Assembly (NCBI RefSeq): GCF_024223415.1
Contig: NZ_CP100500.1
Direction: 5' to 3' (one strand)
Source of the DNA: Escherichia coli
Lineage (GTDB): Bacteria; Pseudomonadota; Gammaproteobacteria; Enterobacterales; Enterobacteriaceae
DNA: 64,000 nucleotides
In this document: positions 6,864 through 50,557 of the stretch, in pieces
Layout: every line of letters begins with the position of its first letter
How positions within the stretch are numbered: position 1 is the first letter of the stretch
Position numbers and translations under genes: made by a program
Notes under the pieces: model-generated
Databases searched by the model: none
What the model saw: the letters and a program-made list of their open reading frames with translations, nothing else
Told to the model about the DNA's origin: nothing

Positions 6864-8012
6864 ATGGCTAACAGAATGATTCTGAACGAAACGGCATGGT
6901 TTGGTCGGGGCGCTGTTGGGGCTTTAACCGATGAGGTGAAACGCCGTGGTTATCAGAAGGCGCTGATCGTCACCGATAAAACGCTGGTGCAATGCGGCGT
7001 GGTGGCGAAAGTGACCCATAAGATGGATGCTGCAGGGCTGGCATGGGCGATTTACGACGGCGTAGTGCCCAACCCAACAATTACTGTCGTCAAAGAAGGG
7101 CTCGGTGTATTCCAGAATAGCGGCGCGGATTACCTGATCGCTATTGGTGGTGGTTCTCCACAGGATACTTGTAAAGCGATTGGCATTATCAGCAACAACC
7201 CGGAGTTTGCCGATGTGCGTAGCCTGGAAGGACTTTCCCCGACCAATAAACCCAGTGTACCGATTCTGGCAATCCCCACCACAGCAGGCACTGCGGCAGA
7301 AGTGACCATTAACTACGTGATCACTGACGAAGAAAAACGGCGCAAGTTTGTTTGCGTTGATCCGCATGATATCCCGCAGGTGGCGTTTATTGACGCTGAC
7401 ATGATGGATGGTATGCCTCCAGCGCTGAAAGCTGCGACGGGTGTCGATGCGCTCACTCATGCTATTGAGGGGTATATTACCCGTGGCGCGTGGGCGCTAA
7501 CCGATGCACTGCACATTAAAGCGATTGAAATCATTGCTGGGGCGCTGCGAGGATCGGTTGCTGGTGATAAGGATGCCGGAGAAGAAATGGCGCTCGGGCA
7601 GTATGTTGCGGGTATGGGCTTCTCGAATGTTGGGTTAGGGTTGGTGCATGGTATGGCGCATCCACTGGGCGCGTTTTACAACACTCCACACGGTGTTGCG
7701 AACGCCATCCTGTTACCGCATGTCATGCTCTATAACGCTGACTTTACCGGTGAGAAGTACCGCGATATCGCGCGCGTTATGGGTGTGAAAGTGGAAGGTA
7801 TGAGCCTGGAAGAGGCGCGTAATGCCGCTGTTGAAGCGGTGTTTGCTCTCAACCGTGATGTCGGTATTCCGCCACATTTGCGTGATGTTGGTGTACGCAA
7901 GGAAGACATTCCGGCACTGGCTCAGGCGGCACTGGATGATGTTTGTACCGGTGGCAACCCGCGTGAAGCAACGCTTGAGGATATTGTAGAGCTTTACCAT
8001 ACCGCCTGGTAA
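6864..8012 (+). CDS. fucO: L-1,2-propanediol oxidoreductase / lactaldehyde reductase (iron-type ADH)
   Basis: ORF MMANRMILNETAWFGRG...; two tandem ATGs at 6861 and 6864, I use the second (382 aa) with AGGAG SD 7 nt upstream. Confidence 0.93.
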   Translation: MANRMILNETAWFGRGAVGALTDEVKRRGYQKALIVTDKTLVQCGVVAKVTHKMDAAGLAWAIYDGVVPNPTITVVKEGLGVFQNSGADYLIAIGGGSPQDTCKAIGIISNNPEFADVRSLEGLSPTNKPSVPILAIPTTAGTAAEVTINYVITDEEKRRKFVCVDPHDIPQVAFIDADMMDGMPPALKAATGVDALTHAIEGYITRGAWALTDALHIKAIEIIAGALRGSVAGDKDAGEEMALGQYVAGMGFSNVGLGLVHGMAHPLGAFYNTPHGVANAILLPHVMLYNADFTGEKYRDIARVMGVKVEGMSLEEARNAAVEAVFALNRDVGIPPHLRDVGVRKEDIPALAQAALDDVCTGGNPREATLEDIVELYHTAW

Positions 8013-11648: not shown

Positions 11649-12204
11649 CTATTTCTCCTGGAGGAATGCAAATAATTCAGCTTTTAGCCAGTTCAGCCCG
11701 GGAAGGTGCCTGACCGTAAAAATGAAATCTGTCTATCGGCGATGGCTTAATCATTTACCGCCGTAATAATTTGAGGGCGGAAAGATACACACAAGTTATG
11801 TATCTATCAGTGATCTTGATCCCAAATACAATAATCTACTTGGAATATAGATTATCCCAACGCTTTACTCTGTAAATCAAAAGTAAAAGAGAATTTAAGG
11901 GCAATATTTGCCCATTAAACGACATCTGACTTCTTCCGGGGCGCGCAATATATGTAGGTTGAACTGAAAAAATCAATACTTTTAGTTAATCATGGCGATA
12001 ATTTCTTTTTCATAGCGATAAAATACGGTTTATGAAAATAGGGAAACGTTTGCGTTGCAACATAAATTGTATGACATATTAACTGTGATGATATTTGTCG
12101 CGTGAGGGTGGTAAGAAACATTCATATAACAAATGAAATGAGTTGATGAGTAAGTGACCAAAAACGAGAAAACCCGGCAACAAACGTCACCGGGGGAGGG
12201 GAGA

Positions 12205-37050: not shown

Positions 37051-37722
37051 ATGCAGTACCCGATTAACGAGATGTTCCAGACCCTGCAAGGTGAGGGTTA
37101 CTTTACCGGCGTCCCCGCCATTTTTATTCGTTTACAGGGATGCCCGGTTGGCTGTGCCTGGTGCGACACCAAACACACCTGGGAAAAGCTTGAGGATCGG
37201 GAAGTCTCCCTTTTCAGCATTCTGGCGAAGACCAAAGAGAGTGATAAGTGGGGGGCGGCGAGCAGTGAAGATTTGCTGGCTGTCATTGGTCGCCAGGGAT
37301 ACACCGCGCGGCATGTGGTGATTACGGGTGGTGAGCCTTGCATTCATGATTTGCTACCACTGACAGATCTGCTCGAAAAGAACGGTTTTAGCTGCCAGAT
37401 CGAAACCAGTGGTACTCATGAGGTACGCTGCACACCGAATACCTGGGTTACCGTATCACCAAAGCTGAACATGCGCGGCGGCTATGAAGTGTTGTCACAG
37501 GCACTGGAGCGAGCCAACGAAATCAAGCATCCAGTGGGACGCGTACGTGATATTGAAGCACTGGATGAACTTTTGGCGACGCTGACCGATGATAAACCGC
37601 GAGTCATTGCACTGCAGCCGATTAGCCAAAAGGATGATGCCACACGTTTGTGCATTGAAACCTGCATTGCGCGTAATTGGCGTTTGTCGATGCAAACCCA
37701 TAAATATTTAAATATTGCCTGA
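37051..37722 (+). CDS. queE: 7-carboxy-7-deazaguanine synthase (radical SAM)
   Basis: 223-aa ORF MQYPINEMFQTLQGEGYFTGVPAIFIRLQGCPVGCAWCDTKHTW (CxxxCxxC-type cluster motif). Confidence 0.93.
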   Translation: MQYPINEMFQTLQGEGYFTGVPAIFIRLQGCPVGCAWCDTKHTWEKLEDREVSLFSILAKTKESDKWGAASSEDLLAVIGRQGYTARHVVITGGEPCIHDLLPLTDLLEKNGFSCQIETSGTHEVRCTPNTWVTVSPKLNMRGGYEVLSQALERANEIKHPVGRVRDIEALDELLATLTDDKPRVIALQPISQKDDATRLCIETCIARNWRLSMQTHKYLNIA

Positions 37723-38060
37723 TTAAACATTTATAAGCGTTATAAATGGGTGGAAACTGTAAAGACTTCTACTCATTTATATTCTTTGTCGTCTCTGAAA
37801 AACCTCCATTTTGCCCATCCTGAACTAATCATTATCATTCTCTACAAATTCTGTGGCGTTAATTTTTCGCTGGAGTGAAAACTATTGCGGTAAAGTTTGG
37901 TAGATTTTAGTTTGTATAGAGTTATTTTAAATATTTACCTTTTTAATCAATGGGTTAAGTGCTCTTTAACATGATGGATGTGTTGTTTGTGTGATACTGT
38001 AAAGTTGGTAGATTGTGACTGGCTTAAAAAATCATTAATTAATAATAGGTTATGTTTAGA
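37723..38060 (+). promoter_or_regulatory. CRISPR leader (AT-rich, promoter-containing)
   Basis: About 340 bp of AT-rich sequence ending ...TATGTTTAGA immediately before repeat 1; repeat orientation places the leader on this side. Confidence 0.65.
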
Positions 38061-38760
38061 GAGTTCCCCGCGCTAGCGGGGATAAACCGGCTGGATACCG
38101 ATCAATTCAATATCGTTTTACGAGTTCCCCGCGCTAGCGGGGATAAACCGGAATACCGATTCATAACGGCGGAAATGTGGATGAGTTCCCCGCGCTAGCG
38201 GGGATAAACCGGTTAATGATGTCAGTGGCGGTTTTCGTATCGCGAGTTCCCCGCGCTAGCGGGGATAAACCGAGTGAGGCAATCAAATGACCCGCCCGCA
38301 ATTAGAGTTCCCCGCGCCAGCGGGGATAAACCGTAAATCCCTCGCGCATCGAGTCAAATGTCGGAGAGTTCCCCGCGCCAGCGGGGATAAACCGGTCGCT
38401 GGAACGGGGCGAATAAAGAGGGGCTCGAGTTCCCCGCGCCAGCGGGGATAAACCGACAGCTCTTTCCCGTCGTTATCCAGTTGGTAAGAGTTCCCCGCGC
38501 CAGCGGGGATAAACCATATGATTCACGAATTACAGGAAACCAGCCGCCGAGTTCCCCGCGTCAGCGGGGGTAAACCGCTATCGGGGTGATTCTGCCAATG
38601 CTCAGAGTGGTGTTCCCCGCGCCAGCGGGGATAAACCGAGCGTTTGCTCCGGGTGGAATAACCCTGGCGGGTGTTCCCCGCTCCAGCGGGGATAAACCGT
38701 TTGCTGGAACCCAAAACTCAGCGCACAGGTTGTGTTCCCCGCGCCAGCGGGGATAAACCA
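38061..38760 (+). CRISPR. Type I-E CRISPR array, 12 repeats and 11 spacers (CRISPR2.3-equivalent locus between queE and ygcE)
   Basis: 29-nt repeat GAGTTCCCCGCGCCAGCGGGGATAAACCG with 32-nt spacers at an exact 61-bp period; repeats start at 38061, 38122, 38183, 38244, 38305, 38366, 38427, 38488, 38549, 38610, 38671, 38732; repeats 1 to 4 carry GCGCTAGC, repeats 10 to 12 begin GTGTT, repeats 8 and 12 end in A. Confidence 0.97.
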
Positions 38761-39229
38761 CCATATAACCCGTTATCTCTTTCTCAAGTTTTTATATTAG
38801 CTGTACTTGTAATAAGCAACATATCCACGTAACACCTCATGTTCAAAATAGTTCCCCATGCCAGATAAGTTCACAATTATCGATACAAAAAATTAAATTT
38901 AATCAAAGTGTTATTTGTATAATTCTTAAGCCGTTAAGAAATTTTAATCTATTATTTTTTTAATATTAATTAATGCCTGTTAATTTTTTCTTTAGTATAA
39001 CAGTGTATTTTTTAAGCTTGTTATTCATTGATTAAGTAATAAATCTGGAAATTTGTCTTTGTTTTGAGGCTAATGAGTGGTTTTACATAACCGCCTCTAT
39101 ACGCTGTTGATGAATAGTTCTTATGAATAAAGATATCCAGTTCATACTTTAAGTGAAAATTGATAAAGTGCGATTCGTATTGTCTTTTATTCTAAAGACA
39201 TCGAGTGTAGTTAATATTCCTTGTAAAAA
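38761..39229. other. AT-rich spacer block between the array and the remnant (possible second leader or H-NS-bound region)
   Basis: About 470 bp, strongly AT-rich, no ORF of 60 aa or more. Confidence 0.4.
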
Positions 39230-39351
39230 CAGGGATAAACCGAACTAGTTAAAGTTTTTATTATGTTCCCTGCATCAGCGGGGATAAACCGGACTTGTTA
39301 TCATTTTTTAAGTTGTCGAACTTATGTTCCCCGCGCCAGCGGGGATAACCA
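39230..39351 (+). CRISPR. Degenerate CRISPR remnant (CRISPR2.2-like): one truncated and two degenerate repeats
   Basis: CAGGGATAAACCG (partial), ATGTTCCCTGCATCAGCGGGGATAAACCG (5 mismatches) and ATGTTCCCCGCGCCAGCGGGGATAACCA (1-nt deletion); spacers of 20 and 32 nt. Confidence 0.75.
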
Positions 39352-39397
39352 TTCAGGTATGTTCAGGCCGGGCAGTTTCCCGCCCGGTCTTCCTCAC

Positions 39398-40876
39398 TTA
39401 CGCATTCGACCAGCTCTGGATCGAATCCGCATTCCCCAATTCCCCATGCATCACTTCATACGATTTTTTCAGGATCACATCAGTATGTTTGGTTAGGTCT
39501 TTGAAAATGCCTTTATTCATCGCGTCGTAGCGTTTGGCATTGCTCTCAATCGGTATAAAGATATCTTTCACGCGAACCATTTTATCGACAGCCGTTGCGT
39601 AATCCGGGTATAGCCCCAGACCTACCGCTGTATTAATCGCTGCCCCCAGGCTTGCACAACCGTTAATGGCGTTACGGCGTGCCGGAAGGTTGAACACGTC
39701 GGCAAAAATCTGCATAAACAGATCGCTGTTCGAACCGCCGCCAGTAATGATCACATGCTTTGCAAAGTGATTCATTTCATTACACATATTGTCGTAATTG
39801 TTCTTCAGCGTCAGCGCCACGCTTTCCAGTATAGAACGATATATCCATGCGTAATCCATGCTGGAATCAAAGCCGATCATAATCCCACGTTTGTAGGGTT
39901 CCCACGGGTTGGTCAGCCAGTCCAGCACCGTCATCAGACCATTACAGCCAGGCGGCACACAAGAAGCTTTTTTGTTGAGCAAATCTTCCGGTGAAAGATC
40001 CTGTGCTTTGGCATCCTGAATTAACGACTCGCCTAGCATGTCGCGCAGCCAGCTCACCGTCCACATGCCTTTACGGATACCGTAACCTTCATACAGCAAT
40101 GTTTGCGGAATAGAAGACATAATCGGCCAGTACGCCACCGGATCTTTCGGCAGTGCTTTGCCGTTCATCATCAATGCGATGTAAGTGCCAAGAGAAATTA
40201 CCGCCGTTTCATCATCCAGTAATCCGGCCCCCAGAGCTTCTACCGGTTTATCACTGGTGGTACAAACAACCGGCAGTCCTGCCGGGAAATGTGTCGCCAG
40301 TGCGGCTTGTGGTGTGATATGTCCGAGGACGGTGCCAGGCATTTGCACATCAAACAGCATATGACGGGGGATATTAAACTTATCCATTACCGCAGCATCT
40401 TCACTCCATGCCCAGCTCTTATAATCCACCGGCCACTGACCAAAATAGTTGGAGATATTGTCTTTAAACTCGCCGGTTAAGCGATGCGTCAGATAACCCG
40501 AAAAAGAGGTGACATAGGCCACGTCAGGATTAGTGTGTTCGTAGGGACGCGTTACGCGTGCATCCTGCCAGCTAATCAATGGCGCAGCTGGCGTGCCATC
40601 GGCTTTCAATAACGCACGGCAGCAACGGATGGATCCCAGACCAATACCGACAATATCTTCTTTATTCCCGGCAAACTGACTCATCAAATCGTGACCGGCA
40701 AAACATAATGATGCCCATAAATCGTCGTCAGGATGTTCTGCGGTATCGGCATCTGGCGTGTGCATCGGCTGCAATAAGCCTTTACCTTCGCAAACCACAT
40801 TACCTTCCAGATCGTACATCACCACTTTTGTGCTCTGACTTCCGCCATCAATCCCTATGATGTATTTTTTCGACAT
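39398..40876 (-). CDS. ygcE: FGGY-family carbohydrate kinase YgcE
   Basis: 492-aa ORF MSKKYIIGIDGGSQSTKVVMYDLEGNVV... (FGGY N- and C-terminal domains). Confidence 0.88.
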   Translation of the reverse strand: MSKKYIIGIDGGSQSTKVVMYDLEGNVVCEGKGLLQPMHTPDADTAEHPDDDLWASLCFAGHDLMSQFAGNKEDIVGIGLGSIRCCRALLKADGTPAAPLISWQDARVTRPYEHTNPDVAYVTSFSGYLTHRLTGEFKDNISNYFGQWPVDYKSWAWSEDAAVMDKFNIPRHMLFDVQMPGTVLGHITPQAALATHFPAGLPVVCTTSDKPVEALGAGLLDDETAVISLGTYIALMMNGKALPKDPVAYWPIMSSIPQTLLYEGYGIRKGMWTVSWLRDMLGESLIQDAKAQDLSPEDLLNKKASCVPPGCNGLMTVLDWLTNPWEPYKRGIMIGFDSSMDYAWIYRSILESVALTLKNNYDNMCNEMNHFAKHVIITGGGSNSDLFMQIFADVFNLPARRNAINGCASLGAAINTAVGLGLYPDYATAVDKMVRVKDIFIPIESNAKRYDAMNKGIFKDLTKHTDVILKKSYEVMHGELGNADSIQSWSNA

Positions 40877-40902
40877 GATTTTTCTCCTGTAATTTTCCTG
40901 GC

Positions 40903-42180
40903 TTACTTGCTGCTAGCTATTGCGGGGGCGCTATCAGCAGTACGAATTTTTTGGAACAGCAAAAAGGTAAAGACAATCACCATGGCAAGCGCCGCCATGC
41001 CCATCAGCCACATATTGCGGTAGGCTTCTGCTGCGGGCAGGGTGTCTTGCCAGTGGCCGATAATGGGGTAAACGAAGACATCCGGCAGGAATCCAATCAC
41101 CGAACAAATACCTACCGTGGTGCCCATAATGTAAGACGGTGTTCTCGCTTCGCCAGGGCAGGCCCAGTACAGCCCGCGTGAGGCGTAACAGGTGAATCCC
41201 AGCAGTAAAATCAGGCCAATCCCCATCGCGACCGATTGCGGGTTAGAGTTCGTGACGAGCAGGGCAGTCAGTGCCAGCAGGCCGATGATGGAAAGGATTT
41301 GAATCACGCGGGTAGGGGATTTCACTTTGCTGTAGGTGGTGATTATGCCGCCAAGTGGGCCGCACAGCGCGCGGAATATTTTGTTGATCACAATCCCCAT
41401 GTAGCTCGCCGCCACCAGCGACATGCCGTACATTTCGGTCAGATAGTTGGTGGAGTAACTCAGAATGGCGTAGATGGTGAAGACACCAAAAATCACCATG
41501 CTGCAATACCAGGTGGTGCTGATGCGCAAAACGGCCAGGATGTCGCTAAGCTGGAATGATTGTTTTTCTTCGTTATTGGCACTGCGCAGGTTGTTGTTAT
41601 CGCTAACAAAAAACCAGCACAGAATCCCCAACAAGATGTAAACCACACTGTAGATGATAATGACCGTTTTCAGGCTGGCGCTGTCATCCGGTGCAAAGCG
41701 AGAAAAAACCCACATGGTAAACACTGCCAGCGACATTACACCGACGCCGCGCAGCCCTTCCATCCAGCCCATAATTTTCCCTTGCTCGCTATGATCGCCA
41801 AGCAACGATGCGGCTTTAATCGACACCGACCACAGCATTAAAATCGTTGTTATCGCAAAGGCGACCTGAATACAGAGCATTACCCACAGCGGTGGATACG
41901 TTGCCATTAACAGACCCAGTAATCCGGTAATGATCATCGCGGAAGTAATCATTTTGCGGTGTGAAAATTTATCGGCAATAACGCCGCTGGGGGCATAAAG
42001 AATAATAGCCGCAATACCAAAGGTACTCATTATTAAACCTATCTCGGTATTGCTGAATCCCATAAATTTCGCCATGGGAATTTGATAAATATAACGTAAA
42101 TAAGCCAGGTCGAAACTAACGCCGCCGCTAAAACTAATTATCGCGAGGGTTATCCAACGGCGATATGAGTTGTGTTGCAT
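40903..42180 (-). CDS. yqcE: MFS transporter YqcE
   Basis: 425-aa polytopic ORF. Confidence 0.88.
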   Translation of the reverse strand: MQHNSYRRWITLAIISFSGGVSFDLAYLRYIYQIPMAKFMGFSNTEIGLIMSTFGIAAIILYAPSGVIADKFSHRKMITSAMIITGLLGLLMATYPPLWVMLCIQVAFAITTILMLWSVSIKAASLLGDHSEQGKIMGWMEGLRGVGVMSLAVFTMWVFSRFAPDDSASLKTVIIIYSVVYILLGILCWFFVSDNNNLRSANNEEKQSFQLSDILAVLRISTTWYCSMVIFGVFTIYAILSYSTNYLTEMYGMSLVAASYMGIVINKIFRALCGPLGGIITTYSKVKSPTRVIQILSIIGLLALTALLVTNSNPQSVAMGIGLILLLGFTCYASRGLYWACPGEARTPSYIMGTTVGICSVIGFLPDVFVYPIIGHWQDTLPAAEAYRNMWLMGMAALAMVIVFTFLLFQKIRTADSAPAIASSK

Positions 42181-42358
42181 ATCGTATTCCCATTTGTAAT
42201 AGACAAAAAAAAGAGAAAAGTAAGCCGCCCTTTCAGGTGGATTACTTTTCTCAGGTCTCTAGTAATTGAAATAATAAATAACATGGAAAGCAGAGGTGTT
42301 GTGTGAGAGTAATCACGCTTCTGCTTTTTAAAACTATTTGATAATACGAATATCACAC

Positions 42359-42374
42359 TGTGATTACGATCACA
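42359..42374. promoter_or_regulatory. CRP-like site in the yqcE / ygcW divergent region
   Basis: TGTGAttacgaTCACA, perfect consensus half-sites, overlapped by a second palindrome TCACAcTGTGA at 42353..42363. Confidence 0.55.
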
Positions 42375-42427
42375 TTAGCAGTTATGTCCTTATGCTAAAA
42401 ATTATCTCCAGTTACCAGAGATAATGA

Positions 42428-42474
42428 GAAAGGTAACTTCCCTCTCGCGGGGGAAGTTACCTTTCTTTTTTTTT
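42428..42474 (+). terminator. Strong intrinsic terminator in the ygcW leader (candidate attenuator or antitermination target)
   Basis: GAAAGGTAACTTCCC-tctcgcgg-GGGAAGTTACCTTTC, 15-bp perfect stem followed by 9 consecutive T; ends 24 nt before the ygcW start codon. Confidence 0.8.
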
Positions 42475-42498
42475 GCCTTACGGAAATTGGAGCTAACT

Positions 42499-43284
42499 AT
42501 GTCAATCGAATCTCTCAATGCGTTCTCAATGGATTTTTTTTCCCTGAAAGGTAAAACCGCAATTGTTACCGGCGGGAATAGCGGTTTAGGCCAGGCATTT
42601 GCCATGGCGTTGGCCAAAGCAGGCGCAAATGTCTTTATTCCAAGTTTTGTCAAAGATAACGGCGAAACAAAGGAAATGATTGAAAATCAGGGTGTTGAGG
42701 TGGACTTCATGCAGGTGGATATCACCGCAGAAGGCGCGCCGCAGAAGATTATCGCTGCCTGCTGTGAGCGTTTCGGTACAGTTGATATTCTGGTTAACAA
42801 TGCCGGTATTTGTAAGCTGAATAAGGTGCTGGACTTCGGTCGTGCCGACTGGGACCCGATGATTGATGTGAACCTGACCGCCGCATTCGAGTTAAGCTAC
42901 GAAGCGGCAAAAATTATGATCCCGCAGAAAAGCGGTAAAATCATTAATATCTGTTCATTGTTCTCTTACTTAGGTGGACAATGGTCACCTGCATATTCTG
43001 CTACTAAACATGCTCTTGCCGGATTCACCAAAGCTTATTGTGATGAACTAGGTCAATATAATATTCAGGTAAATGGTATCGCCCCTGGCTATTATGCAAC
43101 AGATATTACGCTGGCGACACGCAGTAATCCAGAAACCAATCAGCGCGTTCTTGATCATATTCCGGCAAACCGTTGGGGCGATACTCAAGATTTAATGGGC
43201 GCAGCCGTATTCCTCGCAAGTCAGGCATCGAATTATGTCAACGGGCATTTATTAGTGGTCGATGGCGGTTATTTAGTGCGCTAA
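42499..43284 (+). CDS. ygcW: Short-chain dehydrogenase/reductase YgcW (KduD-like)
   Basis: ORF track begins at 42424 and translates the terminator (PFFFF); the ATG at 42499 (MSIESLNAFSMDFFSLKGKTAIVTGGNSGLG, 261 aa) has a GGAG SD; Rossmann TGGxxGxG motif. Confidence 0.88.
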   Translation: MSIESLNAFSMDFFSLKGKTAIVTGGNSGLGQAFAMALAKAGANVFIPSFVKDNGETKEMIENQGVEVDFMQVDITAEGAPQKIIAACCERFGTVDILVNNAGICKLNKVLDFGRADWDPMIDVNLTAAFELSYEAAKIMIPQKSGKIINICSLFSYLGGQWSPAYSATKHALAGFTKAYCDELGQYNIQVNGIAPGYYATDITLATRSNPETNQRVLDHIPANRWGDTQDLMGAAVFLASQASNYVNGHLLVVDGGYLVR

Positions 43285-43353
43285 CCCATAACGGTGGTTT
43301 CTGTTTTCTCTTATTAATGATTATTCCATTTTTATTATCAGGAAGGAATTACT

Positions 43354-44808
43354 ATGTCTTTATCTCGCGCAGCGATTGTCGACCAGCTAAAGGAAATTGT
43401 TGGTGCAGATCGCGTAATTACCGATGAAACAGTATTAAAGAAGAACAGTATTGACCGTTTTCGTAAATTTCCGGATATTCATGGTATTTATACTTTGCCG
43501 ATTCCGGCTGCGGTCGTAAAACTCGGTTCCACAGAACAAGTCTCCCGTGTGCTGAATTTTATGAATGCGCACAAAATTAACGGTGTGCCGCGTACCGGTG
43601 CTTCCGCCACCGAAGGTGGGCTGGAAACTGTTGTAGAAAACTCGGTGGTGCTCGACGGCTCCGCCATGAATCAAATCATTAATATTGATATTGAGAATAT
43701 GCAGGCGACGGCGCAATGTGGCGTTCCCCTGGAAGTGCTGGAAAACGCGTTGCGTGAAAAAGGTTACACCACGGGGCACTCTCCGCAGTCAAAGCCGCTG
43801 GCGCAGATGGGCGGCCTGGTAGCAACCCGCAGTATCGGGCAGTTCTCCACACTCTACGGTGCAATCGAAGATATGGTCGTTGGTCTGGAAGCAGTATTGG
43901 CTGATGGCACCGTCACACGCATTAAAAACGTGCCACGCCGCGCGGCTGGCCCGGACATTCGTCACATCATCATCGGCAACGAAGGTGCATTGTGCTATAT
44001 CACTGAAGTAACAGTGAAAATCTTTAAATTCACCCCGGAAAACAACCTCTTCTACGGCTATATCCTGGAAGACATGAAAACCGGCTTCAACATCCTGCGT
44101 GAAATCATGGTGGAAGGGTATCGTCCGTCGATCGCTCGTTTGTATGACGCTGAAGATGGCACCCAACACTTCACCCATTTTGCCGACGGAAAATGTGTGC
44201 TGATCTTTATGGCTGAAGGTAACCCTCGCATTGCGAAGGCGACGGGCGAAGGGATTGCGGAAATCGTTGCCCGCTACCCGCAATGCCAACGCGTGGACAG
44301 CAAGCTGATCGAAACCTGGTTTAACAACCTGAACTGGGGACCGGATAAAGTGGCTGCCGAACGTGTGCAGATCCTCAAAACCGGCAACATGGGCTTTACT
44401 ACCGAAGTGTCCGGCTGCTGGAGCTGCATCCACGAAATCTACGAAAGCGTTATTAACCGTATTCGTACCGAGTTCCCGCACGCCGACGACATCACTATGC
44501 TGGGCGGTCACTCCTCTCATAGCTATCAGAACGGCACCAACATGTACTTCGTCTACGACTACAACGTTGTCAACTGTAAGCCGGAAGAGGAAATCGACAA
44601 GTACCACAATCCGCTCAACAAAATCATCTGCGAAGAAACCATTCGCCTCGGCGGTTCGATGGTGCACCACCACGGTATCGGTAAACATCGCGTTCACTGG
44701 AGCAAACTGGAACACGGCAGCGCGTGGGCGTTGCTGGAAGGGCTGAAAAAGCAGTTCGATCCTAATGGCATTATGAATACGGGTACTATCTATCCGATTG
44801 AAAAATAA
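43354..44808 (+). CDS. ygcU: FAD-linked oxidase/dehydrogenase YgcU
   Basis: 484-aa ORF with FAD-binding PCMH-type domain (GlcD / alkyl-DHAP synthase-like). Confidence 0.88.
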   Translation: MSLSRAAIVDQLKEIVGADRVITDETVLKKNSIDRFRKFPDIHGIYTLPIPAAVVKLGSTEQVSRVLNFMNAHKINGVPRTGASATEGGLETVVENSVVLDGSAMNQIINIDIENMQATAQCGVPLEVLENALREKGYTTGHSPQSKPLAQMGGLVATRSIGQFSTLYGAIEDMVVGLEAVLADGTVTRIKNVPRRAAGPDIRHIIIGNEGALCYITEVTVKIFKFTPENNLFYGYILEDMKTGFNILREIMVEGYRPSIARLYDAEDGTQHFTHFADGKCVLIFMAEGNPRIAKATGEGIAEIVARYPQCQRVDSKLIETWFNNLNWGPDKVAAERVQILKTGNMGFTTEVSGCWSCIHEIYESVINRIRTEFPHADDITMLGGHSSHSYQNGTNMYFVYDYNVVNCKPEEEIDKYHNPLNKIICEETIRLGGSMVHHHGIGKHRVHWSKLEHGSAWALLEGLKKQFDPNGIMNTGTIYPIEK

Positions 44809-44849
44809 TGTGTCAGGCAGCGTTCCGCGATGACGGGGCGTTGCCTTTT

Positions 44850-44879
44850 CGGCTTCTCAGGCGAGAAGCCGTTCTTATT
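44850..44879 (+). terminator. Intercistronic hairpin with T-rich tail between ygcU and ygcS
   Basis: CGGCTTCTC-aggc-GAGAAGCCG, 9-bp stem followed by TTCTTATT. Confidence 0.5.
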
Positions 44880-44901
44880 ACCGGACAATGAAGGGGTAAA
44901 G

Positions 44902-46239
44902 ATGAACACTTCACCGGTGCGAATGGATGATTTACCGCTTAACCGTTTTCACTGCCGCATTGCTGCGCTCACTTTCGGCGCACACCTGACCGACGGTTAT
45001 GTTCTCGGCGTCATTGGTTACGCCATTATTCAGCTTACGCCCGCCATGCAACTGACGCCGTTTATGGCGGGAATGATCGGCGGCTCGGCGCTCCTTGGTT
45101 TGTTTCTTGGCAGCCTGGTTCTTGGGTGGATCTCCGACCATATTGGTCGGCAAAAAATCTTCACCTTCAGCTTTTTGCTGATTACGCTCGCTTCGTTCTT
45201 GCAATTTTTTGCCACCACGCCAGAGCATCTTATTGGGCTGCGCATTTTGATCGGCATTGGTCTGGGAGGCGATTACTCAGTAGGTCACACCTTGCTGGCT
45301 GAATTTTCCCCGCGCCGCCATCGCGGTATTTTGCTGGGCGCATTCAGCGTGGTGTGGACCGTAGGCTATGTGTTGGCAAGTATTGCCGGACATCACTTTA
45401 TTAGCGAAAGCCCGGAGGCCTGGCGCTGGCTGCTGGCATCGGCAGCTCTGCCCGCGTTGTTGATTACGTTATTACGCTGGGGAACGCCAGAATCGCCACG
45501 CTGGCTACTGCGCCAGGGGCGTTTTGCAGAAGCTCACGCTATCGTGCATCGCTATTTTGGTCCCCATGTTTTACTGGGCGATGAAGTGGCAACGGCGACC
45601 CATAAACACATCAAAACCTTGTTCTCTTCGCGCTACTGGCGGCGCACGGCGTTTAACAGCGTCTTCTTTGTCTGCCTCGTAATCCCATGGTTTGTGATTT
45701 ATACCTGGCTGCCAACTATCGCCCAGACTATTGGACTGGAAGATGCGCTGACTGCCAGCCTGATGCTTAATGCGTTGTTAATTGTGGGCGCGCTGCTGGG
45801 ATTAGTTCTGACGCACCTGCTGGCACATCGCAAGTTTTTGCTGGGAAGTTTTTTGCTGCTGGCGGCAACGCTGGTAGTGATGGCCTGTTTGCCTTCCGGC
45901 AGTTCATTAACGCTACTGCTTTTTGTTCTCTTCAGCACCACCATTTCGGCAGTCAGTAATCTGGTGGGCATTTTGCCTGCGGAAAGTTTTCCTACTGACA
46001 TTCGCTCGCTGGGCGTCGGTTTTGCCACCGCCATGAGTCGGTTGGGGGCGGCGGTAAGTACTGGCCTGCTGCCGTGGGTGCTGGCGCAGTGGGGAATGCA
46101 AGTCACCTTATTGCTCCTGGCGGCAGTGTTGTTGGTTGGTTTTGTTGTGACCTGGCTATGGGCACCAGAAACCAAAGCCCTCCCGCTGGTGGCGGCGGGA
46201 AATGTAGGAGGTGCGAATGAACATTCTGTTAGCGTTTAA
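44902..46239 (+). CDS. ygcS: MFS transporter YgcS
   Basis: ATG at 44902 with AAGGGG SD (MNTSPVRMDDLPLNRFH..., 445 aa); the ORF track start at 44830 is an upstream extension. Confidence 0.88.
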   Translation: MNTSPVRMDDLPLNRFHCRIAALTFGAHLTDGYVLGVIGYAIIQLTPAMQLTPFMAGMIGGSALLGLFLGSLVLGWISDHIGRQKIFTFSFLLITLASFLQFFATTPEHLIGLRILIGIGLGGDYSVGHTLLAEFSPRRHRGILLGAFSVVWTVGYVLASIAGHHFISESPEAWRWLLASAALPALLITLLRWGTPESPRWLLRQGRFAEAHAIVHRYFGPHVLLGDEVATATHKHIKTLFSSRYWRRTAFNSVFFVCLVIPWFVIYTWLPTIAQTIGLEDALTASLMLNALLIVGALLGLVLTHLLAHRKFLLGSFLLLAATLVVMACLPSGSSLTLLLFVLFSTTISAVSNLVGILPAESFPTDIRSLGVGFATAMSRLGAAVSTGLLPWVLAQWGMQVTLLLLAAVLLVGFVVTWLWAPETKALPLVAAGNVGGANEHSVSV

Positions 46240-46996
46240 AGCCGAACCGGATGCCGGAATGCTGGCGGAAAAAGAGTGGCAGGCGGCGGCTCAGGGTAAT
46301 AGCGGACCGGATGTTTCGCTACTGCGAAGTTTACTCGGTGCTGATGAACAGGCTGCCGCCGCGCTGCTGTTGGCGCAGAGAAAAAACGGTACGCCGATGT
46401 CTTTAACCGCGTTGAGCATGGGGGATGAACGGGCGTTACACTGGCTGCGCTATCTCATGGCTCTTGGGTTTGAGGAAGCTGTATTGCTGGAGACGGCGGC
46501 AGATCTGCGCTTTGCGTCGGAATTTGTCGCTCGCCATATTGCCGAATGGCAGCGTCAGAATCCGCTGGATCTGATAATTACCGGCTGCCAAAGCAGCGAA
46601 GGGCAGAATGGGCAAACGCCATTTTTGCTGGCGGAAATGCTGGGCTGGCCCTGCTTCACCCAGGTGGAGCGTTTCACTCTCGACGCGCTGTTTATCACCC
46701 TCGAACAGCGTACTGAACATGGGCTGCGCTGTTGCCGGGTTCGCTTGCCTGCGGTGATTGCCGTGCGTCAGTGCGGTGAAGTGGCCTTGCCAGTACCGGG
46801 AATGCGCCAGCGAATGGCTGCGGGGAAAGCGGAAATTATCCGTAAAACTGTTGCTGCCGAATTGCCAGCGATGCAGTGTCTGCAACTGGCAAGAGCAGAG
46901 CAACGACGCGGAGCGACGCTGATTGATGGGCAAACGGTAGCAGAAAAAGCGCAAAAGCTATGGCAGAACTATTTACGCCAAAGGATGCAGCCATGA
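46217..46996 (+). CDS. ygcR: Electron transfer flavoprotein beta-subunit-like (FixA-like) YgcR
   Basis: ATG at 46217 with AGGAGG SD (MNILLAFKAEPDAGML..., 259 aa); overlaps the ygcS 3' end. Confidence 0.85.
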   Translation: MNILLAFKAEPDAGMLAEKEWQAAAQGNSGPDVSLLRSLLGADEQAAAALLLAQRKNGTPMSLTALSMGDERALHWLRYLMALGFEEAVLLETAADLRFASEFVARHIAEWQRQNPLDLIITGCQSSEGQNGQTPFLLAEMLGWPCFTQVERFTLDALFITLEQRTEHGLRCCRVRLPAVIAVRQCGEVALPVPGMRQRMAAGKAEIIRKTVAAELPAMQCLQLARAEQRRGATLIDGQTVAEKAQKLWQNYLRQRMQP

Positions 46997-47853
46997 ATAT
47001 CGCAATTGTGACAATAAATCAGGAGAATGCCGCAATAGCAAGCTGGCTGGCGGCACAGGATTTCAGCGGTTGTACCCTGGCGCACTGGCAGATTGAACCT
47101 CAGCCTGTAGTGGCGGAACAGGTGCTGGATGCGTTGGTGGAACAGTGGCAGCGAACGCCTGCGGACGTTGTTCTCTTTCCGCCGGGAACGTTTGGCGATG
47201 AACTGTCGACCCGGCTGGCCTGGCGTTTACATGGTGCAAGCATCTGCCAGGTGACTTCGTTAGAGATTCCAATCGTAAGCGTGCGCAAATCCCACTGGGG
47301 AAATGCGCTAACGGCGACGCTGCAAACAGAAAAACGCCCGCTATGTCTTTCCCTGGCGCGCCAGGCGGGAGCAGATAAAAATGCCACGTTGCCCTCTGGT
47401 ATTCAGCAACTGAACATAGTCCCAGGTGCGCTTCCGGACTGGCTGGTTAGCATAGAGAACCTGAAAAATGTTAGCCGCGACCCATTAGCTGAGGCCAGAC
47501 GGGTGTTGGTGGTAGGGCAGGGCGGAGAGGCAGATAACCAGGAAATCGCTATGCTGGCAGAAAAGCTGGGAGCCGAAGTGGGCTACAGTCGGGCGCGAGT
47601 GATGAACGGTGGCGTTGATGCTGAAAAAGTGATTGGTATTTCCGGACATCTGCTGGCACCTGAGGTGTGTATTGTTGTTGGCGCTTCTGGCGCAGCAGCG
47701 TTAATGGCGGGCGTGCGCAATAGCAAGTTTGTGGTGGCGATTAATCATGACGCCAGCGCTGCGGTATTTTCACAGGCAGATGTTGGCGTGGTTGATGACT
47801 GGAAAGTGGTGCTGGAGGCACTGGTGACAAACATTCACGCAGATTGCCAATAA
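46993..47853 (+). CDS. ygcQ: Electron transfer flavoprotein alpha-subunit-like (FixB-like) YgcQ
   Basis: ATG at 46993 (MNIAIVTINQENAAIASW..., 286 aa); 4-bp overlap with ygcR. Confidence 0.85.
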   Translation: MNIAIVTINQENAAIASWLAAQDFSGCTLAHWQIEPQPVVAEQVLDALVEQWQRTPADVVLFPPGTFGDELSTRLAWRLHGASICQVTSLEIPIVSVRKSHWGNALTATLQTEKRPLCLSLARQAGADKNATLPSGIQQLNIVPGALPDWLVSIENLKNVSRDPLAEARRVLVVGQGGEADNQEIAMLAEKLGAEVGYSRARVMNGGVDAEKVIGISGHLLAPEVCIVVGASGAAALMAGVRNSKFVVAINHDASAAVFSQADVGVVDDWKVVLEALVTNIHADCQ

Positions 47854-47857
47854 CGTG

Positions 47858-47965
47858 TTGCCGGATGATCCTGCCTACGGTTCTGGCCTGGGGACTTGTA
47901 GGCCTGATAAGACGCGTCAAGCGTCGCATCAGGTGCTGAATGTCGGATGTGGCGTGTAGCCTACA
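47858..47965. repeat. REP/BIME cluster between convergent ygcQ and ygcP
   Basis: TGTAGGCCTGATAAGACGCGTCAAGCGTCGCATCAGG plus flanking partial REP units. Confidence 0.7.
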
Positions 47966-47999
47966 AATCACACAAATTCAATTCGTTACGAATATCCCG

Positions 48000-48575
48000 T
48001 CAAAGCAATTTTTTCGCTAATGTCCAGACCCCGGTATTCGTGGTGGAAAGCGCCACGACACCCGCGTTAATCGCATTACGCGCATCTTCTTCATCGCAAA
48101 CCAGCCCACCGGCAATCAGCGGTTGGCGGATTTTCTCCGTCACCCAGCCCAGTACTTTGGGCATGCAGCCTGGCAGGATCTCAATACAATCCGGATTCGA
48201 TTGCGCAACTTGCTTATCAATGTTGTGAAACGAAATCGAATCAACAATAAACAGGCGATGAATACAGAAAAAACCTTCCGCTCTTGCCGCTTTTAGCATC
48301 GATGCTTTGGTGCTGATAATGCCGTCCGCCTCGGTCACCAGTTTCAAAAACTGAATCACGACTTCTTTATTTGACGCGCCTTCCAGCAAATCAACATGAA
48401 TAAAAGCATATTTCCCGGCGTTCTTAATCTTTTTAACGATATTACTGATGGTGCAGATATTGCCGTACAACACGGAAATAAACTGGCATTCAGAGTCGAT
48501 TGCCAGTTGCAGGCTGGCATTATCTTTTACGGCAGCAATCACCGGATTCTGGCGGAGCAGGTGTAAGAGGGGCAT
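48000..48575 (-). CDS. ygcP: GlpP-family putative antiterminator YgcP
   Basis: 191-aa ORF MPLLHLLRQNPVIAAVKDNASLQLAIDSE... (G3P-responsive antiterminator family). Confidence 0.85.
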   Translation of the reverse strand: MPLLHLLRQNPVIAAVKDNASLQLAIDSECQFISVLYGNICTISNIVKKIKNAGKYAFIHVDLLEGASNKEVVIQFLKLVTEADGIISTKASMLKAARAEGFFCIHRLFIVDSISFHNIDKQVAQSNPDCIEILPGCMPKVLGWVTEKIRQPLIAGGLVCDEEDARNAINAGVVALSTTNTGVWTLAKKLL

Positions 48576-48591
48576 AAATTATCCTTATTAT

Positions 48592-48852
48592 TTATCCAAA
48601 GCGGTAGGTGATGCCGAATCCGGAAGGTGGATAGCGCCACTGTTGTAGTGTTGATTCGTCGCACAGCAAACGGCAGGTGCCACACTCCAGGCAACTGCGA
48701 TAGTCAATACGTAAGTCACCTTCCGGTGTGAGCGAAAAAAGACCTGCCGGACAGGCGTTAATCAACCGTTCTGCCGTCTGGCGCTCAACGGAGTCAGCCG
48801 GAACAATGTGCGGCGCATCAGCAACGCGCCAGAGATTACGGGCTACAGACAT
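48592..48852 (-). CDS. ygcO: Ferredoxin-like protein YgcO (FixX-like)
   Basis: ATG at 48852 with AGGAG SD (MSVARNLWRVADAPH..., 86 aa); Cys motif CLECGTCRLLC. Confidence 0.85.
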   Translation of the reverse strand: MSVARNLWRVADAPHIVPADSVERQTAERLINACPAGLFSLTPEGDLRIDYRSCLECGTCRLLCDESTLQQWRYPPSGFGITYRFG

Positions 48853-50114
48853 CGCAGACTCCTGATAACATCGCCCGCCAGATGCCACAGGCCGTGACGA
48901 CGTAAATGACGCCAGAATAACTGGCGCAGCGGTGGAACAGGTTTATCACCCTGATCCCATAAATCGCGGGAAATATCCTGCATTAACGCAGGCCACGCCC
49001 GATACCAGCCAGGGCGTTGCAAAAGCGCCGGAACATGCTGATAACGTTGTAGAACATCCCACAGCAGGCTGCGCTCTACGTTGTGATGATAAAGCGGAAA
49101 CAGATTTTGCGGCTCGCGGTGCTGGCAGGCGCTTATCAGTGTTTGTGCCGCCGCCTGCGCGCCAGTTAGCGCCGTATCCATGCCGCGCACGGAAATTCCG
49201 GTATTGACGCAACTGCGCAACGCATCGCCTACCAGCAGCCAGCCGTTACCGGCGTATTGCACTGGCATACTGTGCAAGCCACCTTCTGGCACCAGATGCG
49301 CACCATACTCCAGTGATTCCGTGTTTTTGATAAGTGGGCGCACTGCCGGATGCGCTTTAAAGCGAGTCAGCAGCTCGCTTGCCGGAACACGACTTTGCGT
49401 AAGTGAAGAGAGCGGGCAAACAATCCCTAACGAGAGCGTTTGTTGATTAGTATAAAGAAATGCGCCGCCGGGAAAGTCATCACAGATTCCGCCGCTGAAC
49501 AGCAACGCTGCGCCTTCGTTATTCTCCAGATGAAAACGTTCTTCAATAGCGGATGTTTCCAGCGACAGCACTTCTTTGATCCCCAACGCCATCGCTTCGC
49601 CAGCAGGACGAGTCACTAATCCGTGACGCTCAGCCAGGACGCTGTTGGCACCTTCTGCCAGCACCACATAACGGGCGCGGAGAATATCGTCACCACAAAT
49701 GACACCACACACCCTGCCGTCTTCTTCATACAGAGCATCCACCGTCGCACCAGGGATGCACTCGACACCTTCTTTTTCGGCTTCGGCAACCAGCCACGGA
49801 TCGAACCGTGCACGTAATACACTCCAGGATTCACCGCCGGGCTGTAAGCTGGAAAACGTCGTTGCGCCATCCGGCGTTAACAGGGAAAGGCTTTCGTGAG
49901 TGATGAGTCGTTCAAGAGGCGCGGTCAGATGAAATTGCGGGAGGAGTTCCGCGAGTGCATGGGTATATAACCGCCCGCCGGAAAGATTTTTGCTGCCGGG
50001 GATTTCAGCGCGTTCCAGTAACAAAACGGATAAACCCGCTCGCGCGCAGCGTAACGCGCAAGCGGTGCCTGCAATACCGGCACCAATAATAATAATGTCG
50101 CAGTCGTCTTCCAT
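48843..50114 (-). CDS. ygcN: FAD-dependent oxidoreductase YgcN (FixC / ETF-QO-like)
   Basis: ATG at 50114 (MEDDCDIIIIGAGIAGTACA..., 423 aa; dinucleotide-binding GxGxxG); the ORF track start at 50144 is a GTG extension. Confidence 0.85.
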   Translation of the reverse strand: MEDDCDIIIIGAGIAGTACALRCARAGLSVLLLERAEIPGSKNLSGGRLYTHALAELLPQFHLTAPLERLITHESLSLLTPDGATTFSSLQPGGESWSVLRARFDPWLVAEAEKEGVECIPGATVDALYEEDGRVCGVICGDDILRARYVVLAEGANSVLAERHGLVTRPAGEAMALGIKEVLSLETSAIEERFHLENNEGAALLFSGGICDDFPGGAFLYTNQQTLSLGIVCPLSSLTQSRVPASELLTRFKAHPAVRPLIKNTESLEYGAHLVPEGGLHSMPVQYAGNGWLLVGDALRSCVNTGISVRGMDTALTGAQAAAQTLISACQHREPQNLFPLYHHNVERSLLWDVLQRYQHVPALLQRPGWYRAWPALMQDISRDLWDQGDKPVPPLRQLFWRHLRRHGLWHLAGDVIRSLRCL

Positions 50115-50191
50115 GTCATGCCCCAGATATCCTGAACACAACACCCTAACATAGCGTTACTTAAGGGAAATTGACCGCCGACACACTCTTA

Positions 50192-50557
50192 TCATTCGCC
50201 GCGATAGATACAACCAGCGGTGCAGGTTTCTTTTACCATCACCGCACTTAACAGCGGCACAACGGGTTTAACCTGATCCCAAATCCATTTTGCTAAAACT
50301 TCGCTGGTCGGGTTTTCCAGACCTGGAATATCATTGAGATAATGGTGATCGAGGCGGTCATAAGTTGGCTTAAACGCCGCTTTCAGTTCAGCGAAATCGA
50401 TAATCCAGCCCGTATGCGGATCGACTTCCCCGGTAATTTCCAGTCGCACCATAAAGGAATGCCCGTGCAGGCGACCACATTTATGCCCTTCCGGGACGTG
50501 TGGTAAGCGGTGAGCGGCTTCGAAGGTGAAATCTTTAAATAACGTGGTGGACATCAT
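50192..50557 (-). CDS. queD: 6-carboxy-5,6,7,8-tetrahydropterin synthase
   Basis: Start at codon 29 of the track ORF gives [35 protein letters not shown] (121 aa) with the PTPS zinc-binding His motif. Confidence 0.9.

Follow-up and report, generated by a model that had tools for sequence, protein, structure and literature searches.

Twin attenuator-like leaders in the ygc gene cluster of Escherichia coli as probable targets of the GlpP homologue YgcP

Protein-dependent antitermination switches are very rare on the catabolic operons of Escherichia coli K-12, the textbook case being bgl. In systems of the BglG/SacY type, a protein stabilises an antiterminator over the 5' arm of a terminator, the catabolic operon is off by default, and activity is tied to a phosphorylated sugar signal. 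In Bacillus subtilis, GlpP reportedly switches on glpD, glpFK and glpTQ by overriding a terminator in each 5' untranslated region (UTR), and the glpD leader reportedly keeps its regulation under a heterologous promoter. Here we analysed a 64,000-nucleotide stretch of the E. coli contig NZ_CP100500.1 (assembly GCF_024223415.1; hereafter the window), which carries the ygc cluster in the orientation opposite to K-12. This cluster of about ten genes is one of the orphan gene clusters that remain in E. coli K-12. An earlier note, made from the letters of the window, had proposed that the operon beginning with ygcW is controlled by antitermination through YgcP, a homologue of GlpP. We find that ygcW and the divergent yqcE-ygcE operon are each preceded by an intrinsic terminator with a conserved competing helix, and we argue that both leaders are probably switched by YgcP.

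The ygc system resembles the glp system of B. subtilis in several respects. Both have a regulator of family PF04309 and an intrinsic terminator ahead of each target unit, and in both (judged by eye for the glpD leader) a short upstream helix around a GAGA...GAG(A) loop appears to share sequence with the terminator's 5' arm. An FGGY kinase belongs to each regulon (GlpK there, YgcE here), and catabolite control is superimposed by CcpA in the one and by CRP in the other. In contrast, the ygc targets comprise the SDR-family protein YgcW, the FAD oxidase YgcU, the MFS transporter YqcE, the kinase YgcE and electron transfer flavoprotein (ETF) genes, with no glp genes among them. The ygc helix has a distinct and near-invariant sequence (GUUACY/RGUAAC), the ligand is probably not glycerol-3-phosphate, and the host is Gram-negative, where no GlpP-type system was found described in the literature searched. 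Compared to BglG/SacY, the ygc cluster encodes no protein with CAT/PRD domains, its RNA is unrelated to the ribonucleic antiterminator (RAT) and has no Rfam match, and YgcP would be controlled by ligand binding rather than by phosphorylation through the phosphotransferase system.

The leader of ygcW contains a terminator hairpin and, overlapping its 5' arm, a second helix. The elements are as follows:

42426-42467, + strand: intrinsic terminator of the ygcW leader, 19 bp with loop UCGC, conserved with covariation
42466-42474, + strand: U-tract (T9), read from the sequence
42489-42492 and 42499-42501, + strand: Shine-Dalgarno sequence GGAG and ATG of ygcW, position kept in orthologues
42410-42416, + strand: antiterminator 5' strand AGUUACC, pairing with 42432-42438
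42417-42431, + strand: purine-rich loop AGAGAUAAUGAGAAA (GAGA-N4-GAGA), proposed recognition element with a predicted YgcP contact
42432-42438, + strand: antiterminator 3' strand GGUAACU, the switch segment, also within the 5' arm of the terminator

The arms of the terminator, GAGAAAGGTAACTTCCCTC (42426-42444) and GGGGGAAGTTACCTTTCTT (42449-42467), enclose the loop TCGC and form 19 pairs including two G-U pairs. The uninterrupted Watson-Crick run comprises 15 pairs (42428-42442 with 42451-42465). The earlier note had described a perfect 15-bp stem followed by nine T residues, 24 nt before ygcW, and both the sequence reading and the fold statistics confirm it. The ATG at 42499 lies 24 nt past the last T of the U-tract, the 126-nt leader folds at -47 kcal/mol (z = -7.0, with 0 of 200 shuffles equalling it), and the hairpin was the top terminator-like site in a 14-kb scan. 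The note was also right that the open reading frame (ORF) track hides the hairpin as an N-terminal extension: the mechanical ORF starts at ATG 42424 inside the hairpin, in frame with ygcW, and is an ORF-calling artefact, the RefSeq start being 42499.

In 48 distinct leaders of the ygcW type, 90.5% of the alignment cells in the terminator stem are paired, compared to 57-69% in slid controls, and six pairs have changed on both sides. Conservation is stronger in the 5' arm than in the 3' arm. Behind the hairpin, all homologous leaders have a run of T, which is broken by one A in two Pantoea loci. A Rfam 15 scan of 40800-50300 returned no relevant family; near the leaders it gave only a chance-level match to rliE (22 bits, where the gathering score is 90; E = 4.3). 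We read the ygcW hairpin as the terminating half of a conserved attenuator of transcription.

The other half is the helix formed by 42410-42416 with 42432-42438. The earlier note had raised the possibility of a mutually exclusive antiterminator structure, and this helix was found and covaries. In leaders of the ygcW type the GUUACY/RGUAAC helix of 6-7 bp is paired in 99.7% of the cells, and in 95 distinct leaders of both types in 94.7%, compared to 16-54% for a slid partner. Three of its pairs covary (GC 73 / AU 22 with no unpaired cell, UA 71 / CG 20, and AU 93 / GC 1), and G-U wobble pairs also occur in the 95 leaders (UG 16 and UG 5). Column 28 of the alignment, the switch nucleotide, covaries both with column 9 in the antiterminator and with column 64 in the terminator. 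Such coupling of one nucleotide to two competing partners is the hallmark of an attenuator. In the loop, GAG (columns 14-16) and GAGAAA (columns 22-27) are invariant in the 48 ygcW-type leaders (alignment A2) and almost invariant when both types are taken together (95 leaders). The loop measures 13-17 nt, and the GTTAC/GTAAC half-sites stand 13-18 bp apart.

By itself the antiterminator has a folding energy of -6.7 kcal/mol in the ygcW leader and -1.4 kcal/mol in the yqcE leader, compared to -31 and -21 kcal/mol for the respective terminators. Because the antiterminator is far weaker than the terminator, the default state would be off, and a positive factor would be needed. Two structures from the first minimum free energy (MFE) fold of the ygcW leader were rejected. 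The pairing of 42402-42413 with the Shine-Dalgarno region and the local hairpin ATTATCTC/GAGATAAT both use nucleotides upstream of the predicted transcription start, and neither is kept across other genera.

The earlier note overlooked a second leader of this kind, which precedes yqcE-ygcE on the opposite strand and has its own CRP site (42302-42317):

42202-42269, - strand: twin leader before yqcE-ygcE, matched by covariance model R1 (52 bits, E = 1.5e-7), which was built from the alignment of the ygcW leaders

The twin leader reads CAATTACTAGAGACCTGAGAAAAGTAATCCACCTGAAAGGGCGGCTTACTTTTCTC-T8 and ends 24 nt before the yqcE ATG. Its antiterminator pairs AUUACU (42266-42261) with AGUAAU (42246-42241) around the loop AGAGACCUGAGAA, and its terminator is an interrupted stem (42252-42213) followed by a U-tract of eight (42212-42205). 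The full yqcE leader folds at -20.7 kcal/mol. The twin helix is preserved through a G-to-A plus a C-to-U change, and the ygcW and yqcE leaders share no 11-mer. Of the 50 Gammaproteobacterial loci searched that carry the ygcW leader, 46 have a further copy before the yqcE/ygcE operon, among them Budvicia aquatica, although its operons are not divergent. No R1 copy was detected before ygcS, ygcN or ygcP in any locus scanned. The window is O157-like, its spacer between yqcE and ygcW being 100% identical to that of NZ_AP018488.

Published RNA 3' ends were used to assess whether the two hairpins terminate transcription in vivo. The Term-seq supplement of Adams et al. 2021 (PMC7815308), for growth in lysogeny broth (LB) to an optical density (OD) of 0.4, lists 3' ends in both leaders. 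Its sequence column, which covers -50 to +10 around each 3' end, places them in the window at:

42461, + strand: RNA 3' end, K-12 2900311(-), 38 nt before the ygcW ATG, 40,640 reads (PMC7815308)
42216, - strand: RNA 3' end, K-12 2900556(+), 36 nt before the yqcE ATG, 1,557 reads (PMC7815308)

Neither end is classed as Rho-dependent (Rho scores of 0.50 at 42461 and 0.61 at 42216), and the intrinsic terminator scores are 15.8 and 11.4, respectively (PMC7815308). Both were classed as "orphan", with no regulatory element assigned (PMC7815308). They correspond to the two leader terminators described here, intrinsic and Rho-independent; in contrast, neither the pairing of two leaders nor the antiterminator helix nor a connection with YgcP is described there. 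Since 3' ends were recorded there, transcription starts upstream and stops in both leaders in LB. The central idea of the earlier note, a leader terminator that is met by transcripts from a CRP-linked promoter, is therefore supported by conservation and by published Rho-independent 3' ends. The note had named a transcription start downstream of 42474 as an observation that would count against it; the 3' ends imply that some transcription begins upstream.

Each leader also appears to have its own promoter, with the following elements:

42359-42374, no strand assigned: CRP site 1, TGTGATTACGATCACA, centred at 42366.5, 41.5 nt upstream of the predicted ygcW transcription start site (TSS)
42393-42401, + strand: predicted extended -10 element of ygcW (TGcTAAAAA), TGCTAAAAA
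42407-42409, + strand: predicted ygcW TSS, about 42408, from the -10 element and the CRP spacing; the RNA would begin CCAGUUACC
42302-42317, no strand assigned: CRP site 2, TGTGAGAGTAATCACG, matching 9 of 10 core positions, centred at 42309.5, 41.5 nt from the predicted yqcE TSS
42275-42283, - strand: predicted extended -10 element of yqcE (TGtTATTTA), TGTTATTTA, with a predicted TSS at about 42268

CRP site 1 is the only perfect core match in the window; at most one mismatch gave six matches where 1.7 were expected. The earlier note had placed a consensus CRP site here upstream of the hairpin, and the perfect match is accompanied by published CRP binding. CRP occupies the yqcE-ygcW spacer in chromatin immunoprecipitation sequencing (ChIP-seq) of enterotoxigenic E. 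coli (ETEC; PMC4287617) and binds it in vitro with a Kd of about 1.7 nM (PMC12871828). Furthermore, RNA polymerase holoenzyme and H-NS bind the spacer in systematic evolution of ligands by exponential enrichment (SELEX; PMC3946193).

The spacing of these elements is conserved. In nearly all Gammaproteobacterial loci, each leader is preceded by a CRP-like site whose centre lies 42.5-44.5 nt before the first A of A(G/A)TTAC. On the ygcW side the distance from CRP to AGTTAC is 43.5 +/- 1 nt in about 60 loci, and in yqcE-type leaders a CRP-like site lies 42.5-43.5 nt upstream in most Gammaproteobacterial loci. The extended -10 element TGnTAnnnT is kept at a constant distance from AGTTAC across genera. 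Firmicute orthologues have TTGACA-17-TATACT promoters 6-11 nt ahead of the motif, which supports the idea that the RNA would start essentially at the GUUAC strand. From this spacing, both leaders appear to start from their own CRP-activated class II promoter at the predicted TSSs.

We used an alignment of YgcP homologues to retrieve 64 genomic loci. A leader was present upstream of ygcW in 59 of the 59 loci with a locatable ygcW 5' end (58 related loci plus the window), ranging over Escherichia, Citrobacter, Klebsiella, Serratia, Rahnella, Pantoea, Erwinia, Budvicia, Vibrio and Photobacterium. The consensus in the 130 nt before ygcW runs CAGTTACY-AGAGAnnAtGAGAAARGTAACTTC, a variable stem top with compensatory changes, GCTTTTCTC, T8-9 and finally the Shine-Dalgarno sequence with the ATG. 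Genes of the ygc set adjoin ygcP in 60 of the 64 loci. The other four are a locus with no ygc neighbour detected (L050), one in which the DNA ends about 1 kb past ygcP (L018) and two classical glp loci (L065 and L066). The 60 linked loci combine ygcP with ygcW-ygcU and yqcE-ygcE, so that ygcE is kept in the core cluster; the ETF genes and ygcS are optional or rearranged.

The motif extends beyond the Gammaproteobacteria. YgcP of Halobacillus and Clostridium is 55-62% identical to that of E. coli, and in these two Firmicute loci ygcP adjoins the same SDR, FGGY-kinase and FAD-oxidase genes. The Firmicute units carry the leader AGUUACUAGAG-N5-GAGAAAAGUAACUUCC followed by a terminator, after sigma-A promoters, and score 47-55 bits with R1. 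A metagenome scan that started from the motif returned eight contigs, all with ygc genes, and ygcP was present in 7/7 of the informative contigs, i.e. those reaching far enough.

In Clostridium sediminicola (L068), two copies of the leader occur within one co-directional cluster (5265-5329 and 7748-7812, both on the - strand). One precedes the SDR gene and the other lies between the FGGY kinase and the FAD oxidase, each after TTGACN-17-TATACT. Since this locus also has two copies, the division of the cluster into two leader-controlled units would be ancient.

The genes of the cluster in the window are arranged as follows:

39398-40876, - strand: ygcE, FGGY-family sugar kinase
40903-42180, - strand: yqcE, MFS transporter
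42499-43284, + strand: ygcW, SDR oxidoreductase, the first gene 3' of its leader
43354-44808, + strand: ygcU, FAD oxidase
up to 47853, + strand: ygcS, ygcR and ygcQ
48000-48575, - strand: ygcP, GlpP-family protein, proposed RNA-binding antiterminator
beyond ygcP, - strand: ygcO and ygcN

According to the gene annotation, ygcP is the sole regulator-like gene of the cluster, and no conserved DNA-binding regulator was found among the cluster genes in the window annotation and the compared loci. Residues 12-184 of YgcP match PF04309 (G3P_antiterm) end to end (E = 1.6e-62), and the protein matches Listeria GlpP (PDB 3KTS) with E = 1e-27 and PDB 1VKF with E = 8e-15. The homology with GlpP on which the earlier note had built is thus established over the full length of the domain. 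In contrast to classical GlpP, YgcP forms an orthologous group of its own: E. coli YgcP is 55-62% identical to the proteins encoded in the Firmicute ygc clusters, and Listeria GlpP is matched at E = 1e-27. None of the four core proteins checked (YgcE, YqcE, YgcW and YgcU) passes any curated NCBIfam cut-off, and in a profile search YgcE reached 100 bits against the GlpK model, which has a cut-off of 590. Because the targets are ygcW-ygcU and yqcE-ygcE and YgcE falls far below the GlpK cut-off, we regard ygc as a paralogous system and not as the glp regulon.

The leaders of classical glp genes appear to share a feature with those described here. In the B. subtilis glpD 5' UTR we find GGUC-CUGAGAUGAGGAGA-GACC, in which GACC opens the terminator arm. 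A classical glpP-glpK locus (L065) has CAUGC-GGAGAGGAUGAGA-GCAUG before the terminator of the glpK leader. From these sequences, a GAGA-N-GAG(A) loop in a helix that competes with the terminator looks like a trait of the GlpP family.

We consider YgcP-dependent antitermination of both leaders the best explanation of these data and a probable one, in which the TSSs, the binding of YgcP, the ligand and the induced read-through are predicted elements. CRP-cAMP would license both divergent promoters, and the RNA would start 1-2 nt before (A)GUUAC. By default the terminator would form, and transcription would end after about 60 nt with the release of a short leader RNA. For read-through, the antiterminator helix of 6-7 bp would take the start of the terminator 5' arm. 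YgcP loaded with a phosphorylated metabolite would bind and stabilise the GAGA-loop hairpin, and would thereby switch on ygcW-ygcU(-ygcSRQ) and yqcE-ygcE. By analogy with GlpK, which yields glycerol-3-phosphate (G3P) for GlpP, the ligand would probably be the product of the FGGY kinase YgcE. Because the transporter gene yqcE and the kinase gene ygcE themselves lie behind a leader, the system would form a positive feedback loop. Of the antitermination proposed in the earlier note, the terminator, a covarying competing helix and the linkage with ygcP are borne out; the YgcP step itself we infer.

Several observations weigh against this interpretation. The 3' ends fall 13 nt (ygcW) and 11 nt (yqcE) short of the end of the U-tract, whereas the end at the sokX terminator in the same Term-seq table lies within the U-tract. 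The covariation reflects few independent events, roughly three to five, and the leaders are related, so that shuffle controls make it look more significant than it is. No TSS entry at the leader coordinates occurs in the Cappable-seq and SMRT-Cappable-seq supplements, and both TSSs are predicted ones. The literature searched yielded no functional study of ygcP, ygcW or yqcE; to the knowledge of the earlier note, antitermination of this operon by YgcP had not been demonstrated. The likeness of the GAGA loops to the glp leaders concerns a short motif, judged by eye on four leaders, and the glp leader of the second classical locus (L066) is similar but weaker, with a helix of only 4 bp. Finally, Limnobaculum eriocheiris (L037) retains the terminator without the 5' strand of the antiterminator.

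As to the position of the 3' ends, they map to the base of the GC-rich upper stem or immediately beyond it. Probably they were trimmed by an exonuclease through the A-U-rich lower stem, which is an assumption; other possible causes are release of the RNA at an unusual point or a bound factor that protects it. In the Limnobaculum leader (at about 13886-13951 of L037), GAGAAAAGTAA, the terminator and the U-tract are kept, and an A-run replaces the 5' GUUAC. This locus has a short yqcE-ygcW spacer of about 130 bp, and its match to R1 does not begin until model position 14. This leader could be a natural "locked-off" or re-wired variant.

The alternative that fares best, although we judge it unlikely, is that the leader is a small riboswitch whose hairpin binds a metabolite directly, and that YgcP is otherwise employed, e.g. 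as an enzyme, given the TIM-barrel-like fold of PF04309. The mutually exclusive helices do have the layout of an aptamer and an expression platform, the element is conserved across phyla, and its loop is very highly conserved. However, the sensing part of about 30 nt (a helix of 6-7 bp and a loop of 13-17 nt) offers scant room for a ligand pocket, and no Rfam family matches. Moreover, in the motif-first metagenome scan the element was never seen without the ygc cluster, and ygcP stood alongside it in every informative case, including the minimal Firmicute clusters. The homologue GlpP is reported to act as an antiterminator protein on such leaders, and the classical glp leaders appear to share the loop despite a different metabolic pathway. 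We regard it as similarly doubtful that the hairpin is a tiny metabolite-sensing RNA of a new riboswitch class or a joint target of YgcP and its ligand and, as a separate matter, that the abundant terminated leader of about 54 nt acts in trans as a small RNA. In either case the system would go beyond a further switch of the GlpP type.

Somewhat less credible than a riboswitch is the idea that both hairpins are constitutive promoter-proximal terminators, which dampen expression or produce short stable RNAs, possibly trans-acting, with no conditional read-through. Such terminators, placed 24 nt before the start codon, would permanently silence two conserved catabolic operons. They would leave the GUUAC strand and its compensatory changes without a role, and the stronger conservation of the 5' arm relative to the 3' arm points to a second constraint. 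In their favour, the ygcW leader RNA is abundant in LB, with its 40,640 Term-seq reads, no inducing condition is known, and no 3' end was recorded further down the operon in LB.

It is very unlikely that the GTTAC...GTAAC inverted repeat is instead the DNA operator of some transcription factor, with the RNA structure being incidental. An inverted repeat just past the predicted start would be in a typical position for a repressor, and the SELEX data show H-NS and RNA polymerase holoenzyme binding to the spacer (PMC3946193). Yet a half-site spacing that varies from 13 to 18 bp is unusual for a dimeric operator, the tolerated G-U pairs (UG 16 and UG 5) fit pairing in RNA and not recognition of DNA, the cluster has no conserved DNA-binding regulator, and the RNA 3' ends show real termination.

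Ribosome-mediated attenuation by a leader peptide, or a true N-terminal extension of YgcW from ATG 42424, can practically be dismissed: this ATG is in frame with ygcW and AUGAGAAA is common in enterobacterial leaders, but it lacks a Shine-Dalgarno sequence, the conserved Shine-Dalgarno sequence and ATG being at 42489-42501, and copies from Pantoea, Serratia, Vibrio and Firmicutes that otherwise keep the motif have AAG, CAG, ACG or GGA in its place. ATG 42424 was rejected, both as a start codon and as the start of a leader peptide, since it is not conserved outside some enterics.

If both leaders are indeed controlled by YgcP-dependent antitermination, YgcP would gain a concrete role and two defined RNA targets, and read-through of a leader-lacZ fusion would offer a ready reporter in the search for the inducer or substrate. 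A compact RNA motif that extends from Firmicutes to Gammaproteobacteria and lies outside Rfam would be defined. It would also suggest how the poorly understood GlpP family recognises its targets in general, namely by a GAGA-N-GAGA loop on a helix competing with a terminator, and two Term-seq 3' ends left unassigned in a much-used data set would be explained. The annotation changes as well: the ORF extension at 42424 is corrected, and probably the start of ygcS too. These results should be of interest to researchers working on E. coli regulation and on RNA-binding antiterminators. GlpP-type antitermination, the annotation of YgcP by homology and the 3' ends in the public supplement were already known. 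New with respect to Rfam and the literature searched are the twin leaders, the covarying antiterminator, the cross-phylum motif, the paired predicted class II CRP promoters and the two putative YgcP targets.

Further down the ygcW operon lies another hairpin:

44850-44871, + strand: ygcU-ygcS intercistronic hairpin, CGGCTTCTC-AGGC-GAGAAGCCG, conserved, with tail TTCTTATT

The earlier note had reported a second hairpin with a T-rich tail at 44850-44879. The hairpin is there, but its tail is only moderately T-rich and it lacks the leader motif. It is conserved as GGCTTCYC...GRGAAGCC in Escherichia, Citrobacter, Enterobacter and others, with changes that keep the pairing, and a conserved Shine-Dalgarno sequence and ATGAAC at 44902 follow it. 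It showed no R1 match, no GAGA/GUUAC motif and no Term-seq 3' end in LB, and was on these grounds rejected as a third YgcP target. In genera that have ygcS elsewhere, ygcU closes the operon. The hairpin looks like an ordinary, partly leaky terminator or stabiliser within the operon.

Between the ygcU stop codon and this conserved hairpin, an Escherichia-specific hairpin is found at 44815-44846, GGCAGCGTTCCGCGATGA(C/T)GGGGCGTTGCC, which is absent from Citrobacter and Enterobacter. ATG 44830, the RefSeq start of ygcS in K-12, falls within this Escherichia-specific insert, in non-conserved sequence. Judging by conservation, ygcS most likely starts at 44902 and not at 44830.

A few further observations were made in the window. 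A CRISPR array of the type I-E-like kind lies between queE and ygcE (38051-38762 and 39253-39354). It has 12 repeats with a spacing of 61 bp and, after a gap, two further degenerate ones; the repeat reads GAGTTCCCCGCGCCAGCGGGGATAAACCG. The array is annotated at the same position in K-12 and was seen by a direct-repeat tool; Tandem Repeats Finder, run on 37600-39450, missed it. In the convergent spacer between ygcQ and ygcP, 47903-47933 on the - strand matches naRNA4 weakly (26 bits, E = 0.25, short of the gathering score). The naRNA4 family is derived from repetitive extragenic palindromic (REP) sequences, and the match probably represents a REP element. In the record of O157:H7 PV15-279 (NZ_AP018488), ygcS is annotated as frameshifted (11722-13058) and ygcQ with an internal stop (13812-14672). 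Unlike in that annotation, ygcS and ygcQ are intact ORFs in the window, and the downstream half of the ygc operon may be decaying in some O157 lineages.

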